A stretch of 64,000 bases of DNA from Candidatus Taylorbacteria bacterium RIFCSPHIGHO2_01_FULL_46_22b (GTDB taxonomy: Bacteria; Patescibacteriota; Minisyncoccia; Phycocordibacterales; DSPV01). The position numbers and the translations under genes were made by a program. Numbering within the stretch: position 1 is the first letter of the stretch; each line of letters opens with the position of its first letter. The notes under the pieces are model-generated. The model ran no database searches, was not told where the DNA came from, and worked only from the letters and a program-made list of their open reading frames with translations. This document shows positions 15,073 to 63,505 of the stretch, one piece after another. The DNA is taken from positions 140,479-204,478 of the forward strand of contig MHRF01000007.1 of NCBI GenBank assembly GCA_001820875.1. The letters are read 5' to 3'.

Positions 15073-15178
15073 ATGGGGTGTCGGTAGTATGAAGCCAGTT
15101 TAGAAACAGCGCTGATACGCGCCGCTCATACGGCGTCCCGTATGTCAGTTGAACATCGAAAGAAGAAAGGGTTTGGCT

Positions 15179-16655
15179 ATGCCAATTATCCCCGAAGCTG
15201 TAAACAGTGTTGGATTGCCTGGACTCGAGAGAGTCTCCCAAGGCAAAGTCCGAGAAATGCACAGGCTCAAGAAGAAAGGGCACCGTTTAACGGTGACGTC
15301 ACCTCGCGTGAGCGGGTTTGACTTCGTCTTGAACGCTCGCGTCCCAAAGAAAGGCGAGGTGTTGTGCGCGATGAATCACTTCTGGGTTGAGCAGTTTCGA
15401 AATTTCTGTCCGCAAGACGTGCTAGCGGTGGGAAGTGGGGTTGATGCGTATCTTCCTACGGCGCTTCGTGGCAACCCCGACCTATGGAAAATTGCGTCGG
15501 TCATTCGGGTTTGTGAACGGGTCAATTTGGAGTCCGTGGTTCGCGGGTATCTCACCGGCGGCGGGTGGAAGACCTACCTGAAGACCGCTCCGCGTCATCG
15601 TCTCTGCGGCCACCGTCTCGAAGCAGGTCTTTCAGACGGCGTTCAGTTTGAGACGCCTCTATGGACGCCGACCACAAAGTCAGAAATTGGGCACGACCTC
15701 GACATTCCTGTTCAGCGCGCCCGCCGATCTCCCTTTGGGAACAAGGTTGAGCACTTGTCGCTTGCACTCTACAACCACGCACAACTCATTGCGAAAGGGC
15801 GCGGTATTATCATCGCCGACACAAAGTTCGAGTTCGGGATCTGGAATGGGAAGCTTGTCCTCATTGACGAGCGATTCACTCCTGACTCGAGTCGGTTCTG
15901 GCCGGCTGATGAATGGAATCGCTTGCGGGGAAGCGGAAAGAGTCCGTCTTCGAAAGACAAACAATGGGTTCGAAAGTTCCTTATCCGCTACAACGTGGAT
16001 TGTCTGGATCCGGAAAATCCCGATCACGTGAAGCGAGTGCATGCACTCGAGATTCCCGAAGATGTCATCCAGCAGACGACGCGCATCTACCGCGAGATCT
16101 TCTGGTGGCTCACTCGTGTGAGGCTTGAGCAGTACCAACAGGTGAACTTCGGAGTCAAGTTGTCGGACAGTGTGCCACCTCCTGTGGAAGTACTCCTTGG
16201 AAGTGAGTCAGATCTGCCACAGGTTGAGAGTGGATTCGCAGAATTGCGGAAATGCCACGTTCCGTTTCGGGTGCACATTGTCAGTTGCCATCGCAACCCT
16301 GAAGTACTTCGGCGGTATGCTGAAGACCTATCACCAAACACAGGACTGGTAATTGCCGCTGCAGGCAAGGCCGCGGCACTTCCTGGGATGCTTAACAGTT
16401 GGCTTCGGCATTTCGGTAAATGGTACATTCCAGTTGTCGGGGTGGCCTTGCAAGGCAATACCCAGAACGCAAATAACGCTGCCCTCCTCTCCATATCGGA
16501 GTTACCGGGTAACCCCTGTCTTGGTTCCCGAGGATGGTGTGTACTTCGGCCCCGAGGGCTTCTGGCAGGCCTGCTACGATACTGCTCGCAAGGAGTTCAT
16601 TTCGCATTCGGGATCACCAAAGCCGGCGCAGATGAACCTCATTGTCAACGAGTGA
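15179..16655 (+). CDS. purCE: bifunctional SAICAR synthetase / AIR carboxylase (PurC-PurE fusion); the 3' end appears frameshifted
   Basis: PurC motifs GKVREMH...TSPRVSGFDFVL..KGEVLCAMNHFW. PurE motifs VLLGSESDL...VSCHRNPE...IAAAGKAAALPGM...PVVGV. The PurE-homologous frame runs on to 16855, passing through a terminator hairpin. Frame +1 stops at 16655, just before it. Confidence 0.6.
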
Positions 16656-16660
16656 ATTCA

Positions 16661-16702
16661 GGGCCGACAGCGCGCATGCGCGCTGTCGGCCCTCTTCTTT
16701 TT
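16661..16702 (+). terminator. rho-independent terminator
   Basis: Perfect palindrome gggccgacagcgcgc-at-gcgcgctgtcggccc followed by tcttcttttt. Confidence 0.8.
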
Positions 16703-16746
16703 CCCGCATTGCACACGTTCCTTATTTTGTTACACTGTCCTCATCT

Positions 16747-17313
16747 ATGGCGGACAAAGGCAAATTTGTGGTTATCACTGGACCGTCTGCATCAGGCAAA
16801 TCAACATTGGCTGAAGCTCTACTTTCCCGCCTCTCTGACGCGGTACGATTGGTAACGCTCACGACTCGCACTCCTCGTGTGGGAGAGCAAAATGGCGAAC
16901 ATTACACTTTTGTAACAGTTCAGGAATTCAATCAGAAAATTGATTCGGGCGAATTGTTCGAGCACGCCGAAGTATACGGCAATTTATACGGTTCCTCTCG
17001 TCTGACACTTGAACAACTCTTGTCGTCTCATAAATTTGTGCTTGCGGTGGTTGATGTGCAAGGAGCAGTGACTATGAAAGAAAAAATTCCTTCGGCATTT
17101 GTGCTATTTGTAAAACCCAGCTCGCTTTCCGATATTGAGCGCCGGTTGCGCACCGAGCGTCCGGACAGCAGCCTCGAAGACATTACTCGTCGTTTAGAGA
17201 CCGCACAAAAAGAAATGGCGATCGCAAAACAGTTTGATGCAACACTTGATAATATCGAAGGACAATTTGATGCAATGGTTGAACGCGCGCTCTCATTACT
17301 CGAAAAGAACTAG
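16747..17313 (+). CDS. gmk: guanylate kinase
   Basis: GPSASGKST P-loop. Gmk size and pattern. Start placed at the internal ATG after the terminator. Confidence 0.85.
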   Translation: MADKGKFVVITGPSASGKSTLAEALLSRLSDAVRLVTLTTRTPRVGEQNGEHYTFVTVQEFNQKIDSGELFEHAEVYGNLYGSSRLTLEQLLSSHKFVLAVVDVQGAVTMKEKIPSAFVLFVKPSSLSDIERRLRTERPDSSLEDITRRLETAQKEMAIAKQFDATLDNIEGQFDAMVERALSLLEKN

Positions 17314-18227: not shown

Positions 18228-19859
18228 ATGAAGACTGCTCTACTGTCAGCATTCCGTAAAGAGGGATTGCCTGACTTCGCACGGCGGCTTGTCGCCCGAG
18301 GCTGGAATCTGCTTGCTTCAGGTGGGACTGCAAAATGTCTCGCTGAGGCCCGCATTCCAGTTACGGATGTGGCTACCATTGTTGGTCCACCCATCTTGGG
18401 GCACCGTGTAGTTACACTTTCGCGGGAAATCCATGCGGCGCTTCTTGCCAAGGATACGCCCGAAGACGCCGCCGAACTCACTCGGATTGGCGTTCCTCGT
18501 ATTGATCTCGTGTACGTTGACCTATATCCGTTGGAAAGAGAAACCCTGCGGGAAGGTTCGACACTTGACTCGGTACTCGAGCAAGAGGATATTGGAGGAC
18601 CGACGATGTTAAGCTCTGCTGCAAAAGGCAAGCGCATCGTCATCTCTGATCCTGCTGATTGCGGGCCTGTACTCCAGATGCTCGAATCCGATTTGCCGTT
18701 TGACACCGAGTACCGTGAACATTTAGCGGCGAAAGCGGATTTCATTGTGAGCCGCTATCGTATGCTCACGGCACGGTTCCGCGGTAATGGAGCTTTTGAG
18801 GCAATTCACGGCATACTGCATCTTCCGGTTGCTTATGGTGAGAATCCCTGGCTGGCTTCCCTCGGGTTATTTTCAACTCAAACGGATTACCCACTCGCAC
18901 TCGATAAATACGTGTTGATGAACGGGGAGGACATACTCCCGAGTTACAACACGTGGGGAGATCTCGATCGTGCACAGTTAACCCTGCTTCACATCATGGC
19001 AGGACTCGAACGAAACGGACTGTTGCAATCAAACAACTTCTGCACCGTAGGGGTCAAGCACGGGAATGCCTGCAGTGTTGGGATTGGCAACGATTCTGGG
19101 ACGTCTCTGAAACGGGCGATGGAAGGTGACATTACCTCTATCTTTGGCGGCTTGGTGATTCACAATGGAGGTATTACCGCTCAAGGTGCAGAGATCTTGC
19201 TGCATCACGTGGAACCGTCGGGCAAGAGAGTGTTGGATGCAGTTGCTTCAACTGTGTTTTCCTCTGATGCAATTGATCTCTTGAGGCGCAAGACGGGGAA
19301 GTGTCGCATTCTCCGAAATCCCGCACTGTCTGCTGCTTCCTTGCGTACATTGGTGCCGTCGCTGACGTCAAAGAGGATCAAGTCGGTTGCCGGTGGATTC
19401 CTGCCACAGGCCGACCGAAACTTCGTCCCGTGTTTTGGTGATGGAGGTGGTATTGCCATTCACGGTTCTGTTAGGCCTCTCCTGCATGCTTCAACACGTA
19501 TCGCTGACCTCGTTCTCGCATGGGCGATTGGTTCTACTTCAACGAGCAACACAATCACGTTGGTGAAAGACGGGCAGTTAATCGCCAACATGGTGGGACA
19601 GCAGTCACGGGTACGTGCGGCGAAGTTCGCGGTGTTGCTTGCCGGTGAGAATGGACACAGTACTCATGGGGCAGTTGCGTACAGTGACAGCTTCTTCCCG
19701 TTTCCTGATGGCCCCAAAGTCTTGATTGACGCAGGGGTGAAGGCAATCTTCACCTCAAGCGGATCGATTCGGGATCAGGAGACCATTGACCTCTGCCTGG
19801 AGAACAATGTCGCGCTCTTCATGGTTCCCGACAAGGTTGGCCGTGGTTTTTACCATTAG
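18228..19859 (+). CDS. purH: bifunctional AICAR transformylase / IMP cyclohydrolase
   Basis: MGS-like N-terminus (ALLSAFRKEGL...SGGTAK). DLVYVDLYPL. C-terminal SGSIRDQE and RGFYH (RHFRH-like) end. Confidence 0.85.
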   Translation: MKTALLSAFRKEGLPDFARRLVARGWNLLASGGTAKCLAEARIPVTDVATIVGPPILGHRVVTLSREIHAALLAKDTPEDAAELTRIGVPRIDLVYVDLYPLERETLREGSTLDSVLEQEDIGGPTMLSSAAKGKRIVISDPADCGPVLQMLESDLPFDTEYREHLAAKADFIVSRYRMLTARFRGNGAFEAIHGILHLPVAYGENPWLASLGLFSTQTDYPLALDKYVLMNGEDILPSYNTWGDLDRAQLTLLHIMAGLERNGLLQSNNFCTVGVKHGNACSVGIGNDSGTSLKRAMEGDITSIFGGLVIHNGGITAQGAEILLHHVEPSGKRVLDAVASTVFSSDAIDLLRRKTGKCRILRNPALSAASLRTLVPSLTSKRIKSVAGGFLPQADRNFVPCFGDGGGIAIHGSVRPLLHASTRIADLVLAWAIGSTSTSNTITLVKDGQLIANMVGQQSRVRAAKFAVLLAGENGHSTHGAVAYSDSFFPFPDGPKVLIDAGVKAIFTSSGSIRDQETIDLCLENNVALFMVPDKVGRGFYH

Positions 19860-36480: not shown

Positions 36481-37404
36481 ATGGATACATTCATTAATCA
36501 TGTTTGGAACATAAGCAACTCGCTTTCCAGCGAGTACAACCTTGATGTTCAATGGTTTTTTGTTATCTATCTGATTTCATTTGCCCCCTTCTATTTTGGC
36601 TATTTTTTGATGGCTTATGGAACCACACGCAATCTCAAATTTACTGATCTGATACACTTACGGTTTCGGCATAAACTCCAGTGGCACTCCTATTCAAACT
36701 GGGGCTTGTTCATACATCTATTCGGTCGAGTGATGCCCTATGTATATATTTTAATTATTGGCAGGAATTTACCTCTTTGGGTTTATTTTCTGATTGTCAG
36801 TATTATCGGATTTTCTGTCGGATACCTTTTATATAAAATCTTGCAAAAGGGGAATCGTAGTGAAACCAAAAATGATTTTTCTGTAATAAAAAAGGATAAT
36901 ATTTCTGATCCTGTCGAGATTGAGACAATATGGGAGATTTATAACCATACATTTGAGAAAGTAAATCGCTTAAGTCCTTGCCGACAGAGTTTTGATCATG
37001 ATCATTTCGTTGAAGCACTTCGGGATTCAACGATACATAAATATCTTTTGCAATCAACAGTTGATGGCACGGTTGGAATTGGTCTTATAACTAATGACTT
37101 TAAGAATGCACCGTGGATTAGCAGTGATTATTTCAAGGCTCATTTTCCAGAAGCGTTTGCAAAAAACACAATTTATTATTTTCTTGGACTGGCTATAAAA
37201 GAGCATTTTAGGGCTAGACGCTTATCTCTCTTATTGATTGAAGATATTATTGATGAAATTCCCCATGATGCTATTATGGGTTTTGACCACTCGAGAAATA
37301 TAAATCCGCTTCTCCATCATTTTACAAAAGTGGTTCGTCAGGCACGCTCACTCATGAGAACTCACATAGACAGGCAACATTACCATATTGTGCAACGCAA
37401 ATGA
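36481..37404 (+). CDS. membrane protein, hypothetical
   Basis: 3-4 N-terminal TM segments plus a soluble C-terminal domain. Confidence 0.5.
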   Translation: MDTFINHVWNISNSLSSEYNLDVQWFFVIYLISFAPFYFGYFLMAYGTTRNLKFTDLIHLRFRHKLQWHSYSNWGLFIHLFGRVMPYVYILIIGRNLPLWVYFLIVSIIGFSVGYLLYKILQKGNRSETKNDFSVIKKDNISDPVEIETIWEIYNHTFEKVNRLSPCRQSFDHDHFVEALRDSTIHKYLLQSTVDGTVGIGLITNDFKNAPWISSDYFKAHFPEAFAKNTIYYFLGLAIKEHFRARRLSLLLIEDIIDEIPHDAIMGFDHSRNINPLLHHFTKVVRQARSLMRTHIDRQHYHIVQRK

Positions 37405-39038
37405 CGTTTTCTATCTTCAATATTTTTTCGATTATGACACTTGGCTTGTCACTATTACTGGCATCCTATGTGTACGAAAACAACAAGAATAGTAAAGTGA
37501 ACAGGACGTTCTTGTTCTTGATTTTCAGCTCTATGTTTTGGATCTTTGCCAATTTTATGACTGATTTGGCATCGGATTTATTTTCGATATTACTGTGGAG
37601 TAAGTTGACCCTGATAGGACCTATCGGTATCGGCTACTTTTTTTATCGAATGTCGATTTTTTTTCCGAAAGAGAAAAAGGTTAATAAATTGTATGGGGTG
37701 TTTGCTCTCTTGGGCGGGCTGCTCTTACTAGCATTTGTTCCAACGAGATTTAATATTCTTAGTGTTTTTATAGGAGAAAATAATATCCCTGCAATTATTC
37801 CGGGCCCTTTGTACTTTTTCTTTCTCCTATATTTTCTGACAGTCCTTTTACTTTCATTTGTAAACTTATTTCGTGGGTATAAAACTCTTAATCATCTCGA
37901 AAGGCTTCAAATATCTTATATCTCTCTAGGAGTTGGTTTGTCAGCTTTGTTTGGGAGCATTACTAACTTGGTGTTGCCGTTGCTAGGTTATTCAGAATTT
38001 GTTAATTTTGGGCCGTATTTTATTCTTATTTTTATTTTCTTTAGTTCGTACGCGATCATTAAATATAAACTCTTTGATATCAAGATTCTTACGACTCAAC
38101 TGCTTGTATTCTCTCTTTCCATCTTTATTTTCTTAAGGGCTCTCCTAGGGGATTCTCTGCAAGAGAAGATAATAAACGGAGTGCTATTTGTTCTTGTTGC
38201 AGTTGTGGGATATTTTCTTATTAAGAGCGTGTTTCGCGAAGTGGAGCAGCGAGAGAAGATTGAGACATTGGCGAAGGATTTGGAGGAGACGAATGATCGG
38301 CAGGAGAAATTGATTCACTTTATCGGACATGAGGTGAAAGGGTATCTGACAAAAGGCGAATACGCGTTTTCGGAAATGGTGGAAGGGGACTATGGAGAGC
38401 TCTCACCTGACGTGAAGGTGCTCTCAACCACTGCGCTTGCTGAATTGCGCAAGGGGGTGGCGTCGGTGACGGATATTTTGAAAGCGGCGAACCTGAAGCG
38501 CGGGACGGTGGCATATGAATTGAAACCGACTGATTTGAAAGGAATCGTTGAGGAGGGAATTATTAAATTGAAACCTTCGGCAGAAGAGAAAGGGCTTAAG
38601 CTTCTAACTGCGGTAAGTGAAGGGGAATGCATGGTGAATCTTGATCGTACACAGTTTGGTGAGCATGTGATCAGGAATTTGATAGACAACTCGATTAAAT
38701 ACACGCCGACAGGAAGCGTAACCGTTGGACTCTCTGTGAAGGATGGGAAGGCTATATTTAGCGTGAAAGATACTGGTGTGGGAATCACGGAAGAAGACAA
38801 AGCACGTCTCTTTACCGAGGGCGGCCGCGGGAAGGATTCGCTCAAAGTAAACGTGCATTCAACCGGATATGGCCTCTATATCGCCAAACAACTGGTCTTG
38901 GCTCATGGCGGGAGAATTTGGGTAGAGTCTGAAGGTTCGGGGAAGGGATCAACATTTTTGGTGGAATTACCTCTGACGTCTTCTGTTCCAGTTTCTGTTG
39001 CAACTGCACCGGTCATGCCTCCTGCGCCGCAGGCATAA
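37401..39038 (+). CDS. sensor histidine kinase with polytopic (7TM-like) N-terminal sensor domain
   Basis: H-box LIHFIGHEVKGYL. N/G boxes NLIDNSIKYT...GYGLGLYIAKQLVLAHGGRIWVES. Confidence 0.8.
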   Translation: MTFSIFNIFSIMTLGLSLLLASYVYENNKNSKVNRTFLFLIFSSMFWIFANFMTDLASDLFSILLWSKLTLIGPIGIGYFFYRMSIFFPKEKKVNKLYGVFALLGGLLLLAFVPTRFNILSVFIGENNIPAIIPGPLYFFFLLYFLTVLLLSFVNLFRGYKTLNHLERLQISYISLGVGLSALFGSITNLVLPLLGYSEFVNFGPYFILIFIFFSSYAIIKYKLFDIKILTTQLLVFSLSIFIFLRALLGDSLQEKIINGVLFVLVAVVGYFLIKSVFREVEQREKIETLAKDLEETNDRQEKLIHFIGHEVKGYLTKGEYAFSEMVEGDYGELSPDVKVLSTTALAELRKGVASVTDILKAANLKRGTVAYELKPTDLKGIVEEGIIKLKPSAEEKGLKLLTAVSEGECMVNLDRTQFGEHVIRNLIDNSIKYTPTGSVTVGLSVKDGKAIFSVKDTGVGITEEDKARLFTEGGRGKDSLKVNVHSTGYGLYIAKQLVLAHGGRIWVESEGSGKGSTFLVELPLTSSVPVSVATAPVMPPAPQA

Positions 39039-39096
39039 AAAACAAAGAAAGAAAGCGCGCGAGGCAGGAGCCTCGCGCGCGGATTTGTTTCCGATC

Positions 39097-40044
39097 TTAC
39101 TGTTGTTCACGCGTCGCTCGCCGGAGAGCATCGAGTGCTCCACCAAGCGGGTCGAAGAACCAATGACGTCCTGTCTCCCATTCATCAGGGTTTTCCAAGC
39201 AGACTTCCTCGATGATCCAGTCCTTCCTGACGATCAATCCGAACGCGGTTGGACTCATGGGTCGTGGGAACTCATCTCGAAGAGCTTCCTCAAGGAGAGA
39301 CAGCAATGTACGGAGCTGTTCTCCGAGGAACTTTGATTGAGCCACCTTATCCCCAATGTCCCCAATGGTTTGCTTGAGCAGCCATTGCTTGAACTCAGGT
39401 TCTCCTCGCGGAACCAGTTCTTTGGCAACATCGCCAAACACTTTGCATAGGCACCACAGTGCTTGGGTGCGCGGATCCCTCACCATTCCCAACGTCTTCC
39501 GTCTGGGGTTGTGGTGGGCGGTCGGACCTTCTGTGTCGGGAGTGGAGAGGTTTCGAGCAATTTTCCCCAGCTCAGCAAAGAGTTTGTTGCTCATGTGGTC
39601 GGCAGGGAAGATTGATCGCGTGTCCCATGTGTTGTGGGCAACGACCTGCCAATCTTTGCGGAGTGTTCCTGTGGCGCCAGCGAGGGTGAGGAAAGAATTG
39701 CCTACTCCCCACCACGTCAGTTTTCCGAGGAGATCACTTCGTTGTTTGAGGCGATCCAGTTTCTCGCACAACTCACGATGTTCCTCGTGGTGTGATTCGA
39801 GAGCCTTTAACGAATTGCATCGGTGTACCAGCGAGTTGTGTTCTCTGACGAGTTGGCAGTGCAGTCTCAAGAGAGATCTTGTTACCGAACAAACAAGTGT
39901 TCCGAGCACGACCTCTGTCTCGGGGACTACCTCGTGGTTTTGGAGTTCAGCCGGCGGCTGATCAATGACTTCCTGTTCTGCCGCACTGAATGCGATTTGC
40001 AGGATATCGAGGATGGGTAAGTGTCCGACCTTTTGGGGTGGCAT
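39097..40044 (-). CDS. hypothetical protein (GC-rich island)
   Basis: 315 aa, about 56% GC. No recognisable family. Confidence 0.4.
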   Translation of the reverse strand: MPPQKVGHLPILDILQIAFSAAEQEVIDQPPAELQNHEVVPETEVVLGTLVCSVTRSLLRLHCQLVREHNSLVHRCNSLKALESHHEEHRELCEKLDRLKQRSDLLGKLTWWGVGNSFLTLAGATGTLRKDWQVVAHNTWDTRSIFPADHMSNKLFAELGKIARNLSTPDTEGPTAHHNPRRKTLGMVRDPRTQALWCLCKVFGDVAKELVPRGEPEFKQWLLKQTIGDIGDKVAQSKFLGEQLRTLLSLLEEALRDEFPRPMSPTAFGLIVRKDWIIEEVCLENPDEWETGRHWFFDPLGGALDALRRATREQQ

Positions 40045-40220
40045 AGGCTAGCGGTCTTGGGTTTGGGGTGATGTGGAGAACGGATACAAAAGCAGGATGC
40101 CTTCGTTTGGACCTATATTAGCGATAAATTGACTAGAGTCAATACGGGTATATTGACTAATTGTTATTTACATGATAAAAATCCATTTTAGATTTTTAGT
40201 CTCTCAAACCGTTATGCCGC

Positions 40221-40640
40221 TTGACATTTCGGTCACGCACTTCAACCGCCTTCTTTAGAGACAGGAGGCATTTACGGAGGATTCAGATGACCTTGAAAAA
40301 GTCAGAGAATTTAGTGGCTCGCAAACCTGCATCCTATCCCACCGGTCGTCTTGGCTGTGGGATGCATGTGGCAACTGCAATCGCGGATGGATTCGATAAA
40401 GGGAAGGTGAATGATGCCCGATCCCTGCCAGAACGTGTGTCGGGGTTCACCCGACCGGAAGTGCTTGCGGGAATGCTCTACGCACTCGGTTTTCCTGCCA
40501 AGATCCGCCGACTGGGGAAGTTTCCGGACGAAGTCCTGATTGGAGTTGTTACGCGTCAGATTCGTAACGCCACCCCGATCGTCCTCTTGGTCGGCGCCGG
40601 TCCGTGGAATAGGGCTCGGTCGCTTGCGACCGAGCCCTAA
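40221..40640 (+). CDS. hypothetical protein (GC-rich island)
   Basis: 139 aa. Ends inside a strong terminator hairpin. Confidence 0.3.
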   Translation: MTFRSRTSTAFFRDRRHLRRIQMTLKKSENLVARKPASYPTGRLGCGMHVATAIADGFDKGKVNDARSLPERVSGFTRPEVLAGMLYALGFPAKIRRLGKFPDEVLIGVVTRQIRNATPIVLLVGAGPWNRARSLATEP

Positions 40641-40651
40641 TCCATTTTTTT
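40611..40651 (+). terminator. rho-independent terminator
   Basis: agggctcggtcgc-tt-gcgaccgagccct then aatccattttttt. Confidence 0.75.
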
Positions 40652-40666
40652 GGTAAAATAAAGCTA

Positions 40667-41932
40667 ATGAATATTCTTGTGGTCGGCGGGGGAGGAAGGG
40701 AACATGCGTTTGTATGGAAACTTAAACAATCTCCACACGTTGAGAAAATTTTTGTAGCATCCGGAAATGCGGGAACTGCAGGCATTGCCACTAACCTACC
40801 TATTTCAAAAACAGGCGAGATTTTACAGTGGCTCCAGAAAAACCCAGTTGAGCTTGTCTTGATTGGTCCTGATAACTATTTAGCCGAAGGAATTGTCGAT
40901 AGTATTCAGAAACTTGGTATACCAGTGTTTGGCCCCACAAAAGCGGCGGCAGAAATCGAATGGTCTAAATCGTTTGCAAAACAACTGATGCGTGATGCAA
41001 GAATTCCTACCGCGTCTTTTGAGACGTTTACTGATTTAGAAATTGCTCGCACATATGTACGCAAACAAGTATATCCCTTAGTGATCAAAGCGAGCGGGCT
41101 CGCTTTTGGGAAAGGCGTGGTGATTGTAGAAACTTCTATCGAGGCCGAAAAAGTTTTGGAAGAGATCATGGGAAATAAAATTTTTGGTTCAGCGGGCAGT
41201 GAAGTTGTTATTGAAGAGTTTCTGCAGGGAACCGAGATTTCGATTCACGCATTTTGCGATGGCGAGGATGCAGTGCTTTTTCCTTCATCTCAAGACCACA
41301 AAAGAATTTTTGACGGGGATAAAGGGCCGAATACCGGAGGAATAGGAACTATTGCTCCCGTTCCGCGCGTAACTGCTGAACAAATGCAAGAAATAAAAAA
41401 TAAGATAGTTTTGCCGACACTTGCTGCACTGAAAGAGAAAGGGCGGGAATTTAAGGGACTGCTCTATCCGGGGATCATGCTTACTGCTAGCGGTCCGAAA
41501 GTTATTGAATTTAATGCGCGATTTGGTGATCCTGAAACTCAAGTCTACATGCGTCTCCTTGAAACGGATTTAGTTGATATTCTCTTTGCGTGTATAAAAG
41601 GAACGTTGCAGAAACAGAAAATTGTCTGGTCAAACAAGTTTACCTGCTGTGTTGTTCTTTCTTCTGGTGGCTACCCCGACTCGTATCAGAAAGGAAAAGT
41701 GATTAAAGGACTGAATCACTCATTTGAAAAAGACATTGTTATTTTCCATGCAGGAACGACTATGAAAAATGGGGAAGTAATTACTAATGGTGGGCGTGTT
41801 CTTGGAGTGAGTGCTACTGGTAGCAACCTTTCTGAGGCACTGTCGAAGGCATATGACGCGATTACGTATATATCTTTTGAAGGAATGCAGTACCGAAAGG
41901 ATATTGGAGCTAAAGCAGTAAAGCGTTCCTAA
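40667..41932 (+). CDS. purD: phosphoribosylamine--glycine ligase
   Basis: MNILVVGGGGREHA N-terminus. ATP-grasp pattern. Confidence 0.9.
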   Translation: MNILVVGGGGREHAFVWKLKQSPHVEKIFVASGNAGTAGIATNLPISKTGEILQWLQKNPVELVLIGPDNYLAEGIVDSIQKLGIPVFGPTKAAAEIEWSKSFAKQLMRDARIPTASFETFTDLEIARTYVRKQVYPLVIKASGLAFGKGVVIVETSIEAEKVLEEIMGNKIFGSAGSEVVIEEFLQGTEISIHAFCDGEDAVLFPSSQDHKRIFDGDKGPNTGGIGTIAPVPRVTAEQMQEIKNKIVLPTLAALKEKGREFKGLLYPGIMLTASGPKVIEFNARFGDPETQVYMRLLETDLVDILFACIKGTLQKQKIVWSNKFTCCVVLSSGGYPDSYQKGKVIKGLNHSFEKDIVIFHAGTTMKNGEVITNGGRVLGVSATGSNLSEALSKAYDAITYISFEGMQYRKDIGAKAVKRS

Positions 41933-63149: not shown

Positions 63150-63505
63150 ATTTGTACCTTGTGCCTATAAGCCGAGTTCTGTATCTGTCTTGCGACAGAC
63201 GATAGCCATTTATCTAGGATGTGTGTTGCCACACATCTCAAGCGGCACTCTCCGCCAAAGGCGGAGCACGGCCTTGCAACCAAGTAAGGATTTTGCCGTT
63301 TCACTCTCTTTATTACTAAAGAGCTCGCCCGATCTTTCGATAGGGTGGTTTTCCCCTTTCGGAAAAAACCGTCTCTGTTCGCACCTCGTAGGTTTCCCTA
63401 GACGGGCGTTACCCGTTACCCGTTTATTACATCTTTCGATGCAATGGTAGCTCGGACTTTCCTCACCTCTGCTTACGCAGGGCGCGACTATCCGGCACAG
63501 GGTTG
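63150..63505 (-). ncRNA. rnpB: RNase P RNA (bacterial type A-like, compact)
   Basis: Reverse complement contains GAGGAAAGTCCGAGCTACC (P4 5' strand), GGTAACGCCCGTCTAGGGAAACCTACGAGGTGCGAACAGAGACGG (matches E. coli GGUAACGCCUGGG...GGAAACCCACGACCAGUGCAACAGAGAGCAAACCGCC), and ACAGAACTCGGCTTAT (P4 3' strand, with compensatory changes against the 5' strand). Ends in a 27-bp hairpin. Confidence 0.75.

Follow-up and report, generated by a model that had tools for sequence, protein, structure and literature searches.

The window analysed here is a stretch of 64,000 nucleotides of Candidatus Taylorbacteria bacterium RIFCSPHIGHO2_01_FULL_46_22b (contig MHRF01000007.1), in which two genes of 315 and 117 amino acids (aa) stand back to back between a seven-transmembrane histidine kinase gene (37401..39038; HisKA_7TM/HATPase_c) and purD (40667..41932; GARS domains). 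These flanking genes had been named as such in the initial annotation of the locus, and domain matches bore both of them out. The 315-aa gene lies on the minus strand at 39097..40044, where its open reading frame (ORF) was present as claimed; it encodes a member of a rare, unannotated family with two tandem modules of about 100 aa. Its own frame alone had a positive coding score in a codon log-odds test that was trained on the genes of the window and compared all six frames. On the plus strand, the previously described ORF of 139 aa (40221..40640) does exist, but public gene calls start the gene at ATG 40287, and the resulting 117 aa (40287..40640) is the better call because this ATG comes after two Shine-Dalgarno-like sites, AGGAGG (40263-40268) and GGAGG (40276-40280). 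The intergenic spacer of 176 bp holds for the 139-aa ORF and becomes 242 bp with the 117-aa start. Several public contigs from the Rifle aquifer site matched the window at 99.7-100% identity.

By consensus match, a candidate sigma-70 promoter, with -35 and -10 elements separated by 16-18 nt, was found upstream of each gene, one on either strand. The candidate promoter of the 315-aa gene (40115..40142, minus strand) combines a -35 of TTGACT (40142..40137), a 16-nt spacer and a -10 of TAATAT (40120..40115), and is followed by an A+C-rich leader of about 64 nt without a Shine-Dalgarno site. The candidates for the 117-aa gene fall within 40153..40194 on the plus strand, either as TTGACT (40153-40158) with TAAAAA/AAAAAT (40176-40182) after 17-18 nt, or as TTTACA (40167) with TAGATT (40194) after 16 nt; both scored 9/12, and the leader of this gene is about 95 nt long.

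Three ATTGACT boxes were located in this promoter region (40128..40158): box 1 (40128-40134, plus strand), box 2 (40137-40143, minus strand) and box 3 (40152-40158, plus strand). Boxes 1 and 2 form a perfect palindrome of 16 bp, ATTGACT-AG-AGTCAAT, which covers the -35 and the spacer of the candidate minus promoter, and boxes 2 and 3 form an inverted repeat with 8-nt arms, AGTCAATA-N6-TATTGACT. The inverted repeat with an additional TTGACT reported earlier was thus recovered, as TTGACT-AG-AGTCAA at 40129-40142 with the third copy 10 bp downstream at 40153-40158. Its half-sites are 2 nt apart, whereas the search pattern TTGACT-N3-AGTCAA given with it has 3 nt, and the true repeated unit is the 7-mer ATTGACT rather than the 6-mer TTGACT. 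When the intergenic spacer was subjected to 2000 dinucleotide shuffles, a 7-mer occurring three times within 32 nt was never obtained (0/2000), three copies of a 6-mer were obtained in 0.65%, and a palindrome with arms of at least 7 nt, taken alone, in 9.5% of the shuffles. The ATTGACT cluster is therefore not a product of chance. The -35 hexamers of the candidate minus and plus promoters lie in boxes 2 and 3, respectively, 10 bp apart, and the inverted repeat may largely represent these two hexamers, each within ATTGACT, of divergent promoters. Box 1 falls between the -35 and the -10 of the minus promoter and lacks a usable -10 of its own, since TATATT follows after only 14 nt; it could be a fossil or decoy -35, or it could be the palindrome half that serves the binding site of some regulator.

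Both genes end in intrinsic terminators, consisting of a GC-rich stem-loop followed by a U-run (40610-40639 with seven T, and 39055-39080). The terminator at 39055..39080, GCGCGCGAGGC-AGGA-GCCTCGCGCGC, is bidirectional, its hairpin being flanked by an A-run and, at the opposite end, by a T-rich tail. Its 11-bp stem, with 10 GC pairs and 100% complementary arms, was scored on both strands, and it separates the convergent histidine kinase and 315-aa genes; the initial annotation did not include it. The terminator of the 117-aa gene (40605..40651, plus strand) has a perfect 13-bp stem (40610-40622 / 40627-40639; 18 pairs if one mismatch is allowed), a TTGC loop and a T7 run. Its fold reached -38.2 kcal/mol with a z-score of -4.8, and 0/200 shuffles were equally stable, in agreement with the strong 13-bp hairpin terminator that had been proposed for the end of the plus gene. 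The stop codon of the 117-aa gene, TAA (40638-40640), falls within the 3' arm of the stem.

Just past this terminator, an extended -10-like element, TGGTAAAAT (40651..40669, plus strand), is positioned 7 nt before the ATG of purD (40667), and purD has no Shine-Dalgarno site. Transcription of purD would thus start from a promoter of its own, probably insulated from the 117-aa gene, and its mRNA is perhaps leaderless. There was no positional peak of -10-like motifs before the start codons of the window genes, so the leaderless reading of purD depends on that one site. A 10-nt exact direct repeat, AATCCATTTT, was also observed at 40180-40189 and 40639-40648, so that it flanks the 117-aa gene together with its leader and terminator. 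Without the segment that the repeat encloses, the TTGACT-N17-TAAAAA promoter would stand immediately before purD; chance alone would give about 1.5 ten-nt repeat pairs in a stretch of this kind.

Both proteins had been described as unrecognisable, and this was upheld when they and all members of the 315-aa family were scanned against Pfam, NCBIfam, PADLOC and PHROGs: neither protein had a match in any of these libraries and neither was of a housekeeping family. When 1.84 billion representative proteins were searched exhaustively with phmmer, 13 homologues of the 315-aa protein were recovered, with lengths of 208-358 aa and E values of 8e-15 to 8e-4. Together with the window protein they make up a set of 14 sequences, whose alignment showed pairwise identities of 15-41%. 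Judged by these matches, the 315-aa gene is not an orphan and belongs to a rare, very divergent family. A word-indexed profile search gained no further members, and the curated libraries contained nothing usable for any of the 14, with only two isolated PADLOC matches, E 0.005 and 0.016, to one member each.

The homologues were encoded on contigs from metagenomes, several of which derive from groundwater (Rifle, Hainich), and the gene content of these contigs looks like that of ultra-small bacteria of the Candidate Phyla Radiation (CPR). All 13 homologues were solo genes; their neighbours were unrelated to one another and none was conserved. The surrounding genes included those for IF-2, RbfA, S16, SerRS, RuvB and a type IV pilin. 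One homologue had restriction-modification and GmrSD genes at a distance of about 2 kb, and one adjoined a transposase gene. A divergent upstream gene of the ABC-F type was present at P0013, and P0014 had a divergent upstream gene too, which was cut by the contig end. In none of the fetched loci did tblastn detect a relative of the 117-aa protein beside the homologue. P0004 and P0005 occupied a common position, Aminotran_5 - X - rpsP, yet were only 30% identical. Two homologue pairs with common genomic positions suggest vertical descent with fast divergence.

The pattern TTGACn-N16-18-TAnnnT, used as the strict promoter definition, occurred exactly once upstream of each of the eight family genes that have upstream DNA (seven homologues and the 315-aa gene), and had only 8 matches in the whole 64-kb window. 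An aTTGACa -35 was present upstream of every homologue with upstream DNA, and the promoter was followed by a leader of 30-116 nt that is rich in A+C and poor in G in 8/8 family genes (loci L010-L017 for the homologues). No half-site cluster comparable to the ATTGACT boxes was found upstream of the homologues. The GC content at third codon positions (GC3) of the family genes was 0.50-0.73, compared with neighbour means of 0.41-0.48; it was higher than the neighbour mean in 5/5 loci with called neighbours and exceeded the highest GC3 of any neighbour in 4/5. Because GC3 was raised in all five loci from other genomes, high GC content is a property of the family and not a mark of this locus. The consensus promoter, the A+C-rich leader and the high GC3 would be consistent with strong expression of the 315-aa family.

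The hallmark motif LFWxxVrdEfP...LRkGWxVV occurred twice in the family alignment, and comparison of the N-terminal with the C-terminal half by hhalign gave a probability of 99.1% and an E value of 1.3e-18. The 315-aa protein therefore consists of a tandemly duplicated module of about 100 aa. AlphaFold with the single sequence produced an unusable model (predicted local distance difference test, pLDDT, of 41), but addition of the 13 homologues led to a confident one with a pLDDT of 83.3 and a predicted template modelling score (pTM) of 0.82. In this model each module is predicted to consist of a strand, two long helices and a beta-hairpin, and the two copies would make the protein pseudo-dimeric. 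The protein is probably cytoplasmic or otherwise soluble, as an N-terminal hydrophobic signal-like stretch was not visible by eye. An H-x3-H-x7-12-C motif between the helices of repeat 1 was present in 8/13 homologues in the alignment, and binding of a metal by this motif is a speculation that we put forward as such. The remote homology checks advised earlier were carried out for this protein by profile searches of the PDB and by Foldseek, and gave nothing significant. Foldseek of the model against the PDB and BFVD returned no match with E <0.2 (best 3kmi, E 0.23), and PDB sequence searches with both proteins, with the family profile and with a single-module profile returned chance-level matches only. 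Within the 315-aa gene, an antisense ORF of 201 aa was noted on the plus strand at 39356-39961; it is an artefact of GC-rich sequence, because its coding score was negative. On scaffold L002, which carries an N-gap, the gene caller had annotated a plus-strand ORF of 220 aa there and had missed the real 315-aa gene.

The 315-aa gene was also a hot spot of strain-level variation (loci L002, L005 and L182). Among near-identical contigs, 6 single-nucleotide polymorphisms (SNPs) were counted in 2458 compared bases of the gene versus 4 in 34,600 bases outside, a density about 20-fold above that of the flanking genes in one aquifer population. Of the six SNPs, four are grouped close to one contig end and could stem from a single event or an error; the gene was enriched even when SNPs were counted as events. 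A further allele, P0001, carried V114E, T139S and D170E. Three assemblies have contigs that start at 39926-39930, and a fourth has an N-gap there. An island junction at this place was considered and rejected, as these ends coincide with the SNP at 39925, which is why the three assemblies break there.

The protein of 117 aa is basic (isoelectric point, pI, of 10.5), and 5.8 billion clusters contained no homologue beyond 100% identical copies from the same aquifer population (Rifle, Candidatus Taylorbacteria). It likewise had no match in the curated libraries, the PDB, phages, plasmids or IMG/VR. Its coding score was positive only in the ORF frame, at +0.139, which is near the window-gene median of about 0.15; the other five frames all scored below zero. 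Shine-Dalgarno motifs were found for only 7/44 window genes and were strong in only 3; that of the 117-aa gene is strong. It is thus probably a true, lineage-specific orphan that is translated. The leader was not significantly structured (fold z-score -0.5). A truncated C39-like cysteine peptidase was considered for this protein from a sequence pattern (GCG...GFT.PE.L...PIVLLV), which found no profile or PDB match, and this assignment is not claimed. Scans with Rfam and for tRNAs revealed neither a riboswitch nor a small RNA in the region. Elsewhere, the window contains a class A RNase P RNA (63152-63503, minus strand; 129 bits) and a tRNA-Ser(GGA) (58869-58957, plus strand).

Taken together, we interpret the locus as two unrelated single genes standing back to back, each transcribed independently from its own sigma-70 promoter and ended by its own intrinsic terminator, and not as a coupled cassette, with a probability of roughly 0.55. 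The 315-aa gene would be the solo, strongly expressed member of a rare, fast-evolving protein family, and the 117-aa gene a lineage-specific orphan that is probably translated. A coupled cassette is disfavoured because the homologues are solo, no partner is conserved and there is no signal of defence, phage or plasmid. Several points weigh against this interpretation. Box 1 is left without a part in either promoter, a perfect palindrome of 7+7 nt that overlaps a -35 resembles a repressor site, and the cluster is far from chance; the 117-aa protein, with its pI of 10.5, could be of a DNA-binding type that the profile libraries miss; and the raised GC content common to both genes, the terminators on both sides, the unusual leaders and the Shine-Dalgarno site fit a joint acquisition. 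The palindrome could still act as an operator, and the block may be of foreign origin.

The initial annotation had proposed a self-regulated two-gene cassette such as a toxin-antitoxin (TA) or abortive-infection system or a regulator with its effector. A cassette of this kind was not supported, as the partner is not conserved, the 13 homologues are solo and no relative of the 117-aa protein lies beside them, and we consider a TA or defence module highly improbable. Two unknown genes in a compositionally odd patch, the fast evolution of the 315-aa gene at a hot spot of strain variation and the single homologue near restriction-modification and GmrSD genes would suit such a module. The gene organisation, however, already largely refutes it: type II TA genes are adjacent, co-oriented and co-transcribed, whereas these genes, of 315 and 117 aa, are divergent, lie 242 bp apart and have their own promoters and terminators. 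Neither protein carries a toxin or antitoxin domain according to Pfam, NCBIfam and PADLOC, PHROGs added no match, and the family as a whole had only the two isolated PADLOC matches. A conserved pair is likewise absent, with solo homologues on one side and a 117-aa protein without relatives on the other, and most homologue contexts are of housekeeping genes (IF-2, RbfA, S16, SerRS, RuvB), with one homologue near restriction-modification and GmrSD genes and one next to a transposase gene. Searches of phages, plasmids and IMG/VR were negative; their sole match, to a MerR-annotated stretch at E 0.5, was judged to be chance. An autoregulated divergent pair, in which the 117-aa or the 315-aa protein would bind the ATTGACT boxes as a dimer or tetramer, cover the -35 elements and shut both promoters, seems unlikely, although less so than the TA module. 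It would account for the non-random cluster (0/2000 shuffles), for the perfect 16-bp palindrome of boxes 1 and 2 and the 8-nt-arm repeat of boxes 2 and 3, for a box 1 that has no -10 partner and for the basic character of the 117-aa protein; the half-site arrangement is also specific to this locus and absent before the homologues, as would be expected if the partner were particular to this locus, for example the 117-aa protein. Yet neither Pfam nor NCBIfam profiles revealed a helix-turn-helix or other DNA-binding domain at E values up to 10, no homologue of the 315-aa protein has a regulator as its partner, and the search for the operator elsewhere gave no second site in the 64-kb window with up to 2 mismatches. 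The operator reading is further weakened because boxes 2 and 3 are correctly spaced -35 hexamers and the same ordinary -35 consensus precedes every homologue. What stands of the operator of a divergent pair as originally envisaged is the promoter pair and the non-random overlapping repeat; boxes 2 and 3 are explained without it, and the palindrome made by box 1 keeps an operator possible.

The origin of the block is a separate question, compatible with either functional reading. Against a gene mean for the window of 44.9% GC (standard deviation, sd, 4.5), the 315-aa gene had 53.7% (+2.0 sd) and the 139-aa ORF 55.5% (+2.4 sd), so that both genes are indeed GC-rich, slightly less than the 55-57% that had been given, while the neighbouring genes have 36-43%. 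A horizontally acquired two-gene islet (39055-40651) from a GC-richer donor that uses Shine-Dalgarno sites would explain this deviation, together with a GGAGG site that is atypical for the window, but on balance we find it somewhat unlikely. A purC-purE fusion (SAICAR synthetase and AIR carboxylase, 568 aa; 15149-16855) with 54.0% GC and purH (18228-19859) with 53.2% are equally GC-rich, so GC content does not decide for transfer; high GC accompanies housekeeping purine genes in this genome. The high GC3 is intrinsic to the 315-aa family elsewhere and common positions indicate vertical descent, and the codon usage of the 117-aa gene scored as typical of the host. Neither an integrase, a transposase nor a tRNA was found near the locus. 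The only flanking direct repeat, AATCCATTTT around the 117-aa unit, could be taken as a trace of insertion, but is at chance level. The ends of public contigs bear on the same question: some lie inside the two terminator hairpins, at 39077, 40608, 40614 and 40638 (loci L009, L183 and L184), one contig of 1562 bp runs exactly from one hairpin to the other (39077-40638), and a further two begin in the right hairpin. Such breaks could mark the junctions of a variable segment, or they could be palindrome-related assembly artefacts, as we assume may happen at perfect palindromes. All contigs with this purD that extend beyond the terminator on its upstream side include the 117-aa gene as well, which speaks against an islet. 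In a synteny comparison through purD, none of 160 loci had this neighbourhood, and the nearest purD relatives among the matches listed, from GTDB species genomes and JGI contigs, were at most 68% identical and without synteny. Horizontal acquisition, as claimed initially, was not shown, given the equally GC-rich purC/E and purH, the family-wide GC3 and the vertical descent at common positions. It is doubtful, and to us more so than an islet, that the 315-aa protein represents an undescribed fold family of CPR-type bacteria, rare, with a duplicated module, perhaps metal-binding, and placed at a hot spot of recombination or diversifying selection. The basis for it is the GC3 above the neighbour mean in every locus examined, the 30% identity at a common position and the roughly 20-fold SNP density. 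Features of this kind are the signature expected of a protein facing host or phage, and, if this were true, the 315-aa protein could additionally be controlled by the 117-aa protein as a small, basic orphan repressor acting on the three ATTGACT boxes.

With two independently transcribed genes as the preferred reading, the locus becomes an instance of ordinary bacterial gene organisation, and one candidate TA or defence cassette is removed. A modest value lies in the 315-aa family, which is absent from Pfam, NCBIfam, PHROGs and PADLOC and has a confident model without a significant neighbour in the PDB or BFVD. The family is also of note for its clear internal duplication and for uniting a consensus promoter and high GC3 with fast divergence and variation between strains. 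If abundant in metaproteomes, it would be a reasonable structural and functional target in poorly understood organisms.

Among known structures, PhoU-like duplicated helical bundles (1t72, 2i0m, 4q25) and the helical domain 3kmi offer a structural analogy only. They were the top-ranked Foldseek targets with compact alignments to the 315-aa model, which like them is mostly helical and has an internally duplicated helical unit in a pseudo-symmetric bundle. The matches were not significant, with E values of 0.23 to 5.6 and a root-mean-square deviation of about 9-10 Å; template modelling (TM) scores were 0.26-0.31 on the query and 0.35-0.51 on the target (0.26-0.39 for PhoU), and no significant superposition on a PhoU-like fold was obtained with Foldseek. 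The 315-aa modules also differ in carrying beta strands and a hairpin, and there is no sequence similarity.

At the level of gene organisation, the locus resembles divergent regulator-target pairs of the TetR or LysR type in its divergent genes, its palindrome over a common promoter region and its one small basic product. It differs from them in that profile scans found no DNA-binding domain, the pairing is not conserved and the half-site is itself the -35 consensus. It also resembles back-to-back divergent sigma-70 promoters: two candidate -35 boxes of TTGACT lie on opposite strands 10 bp apart, each is 16-18 nt from TAnnnT or AAAAAT, and each gene ends in an intrinsic terminator. The difference from plain divergent promoters is a third identical 7-mer that completes a palindrome in one spacer, where it is not needed. 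The locus is also a reminder that TTGACT palindromes may be just paired -35 boxes.

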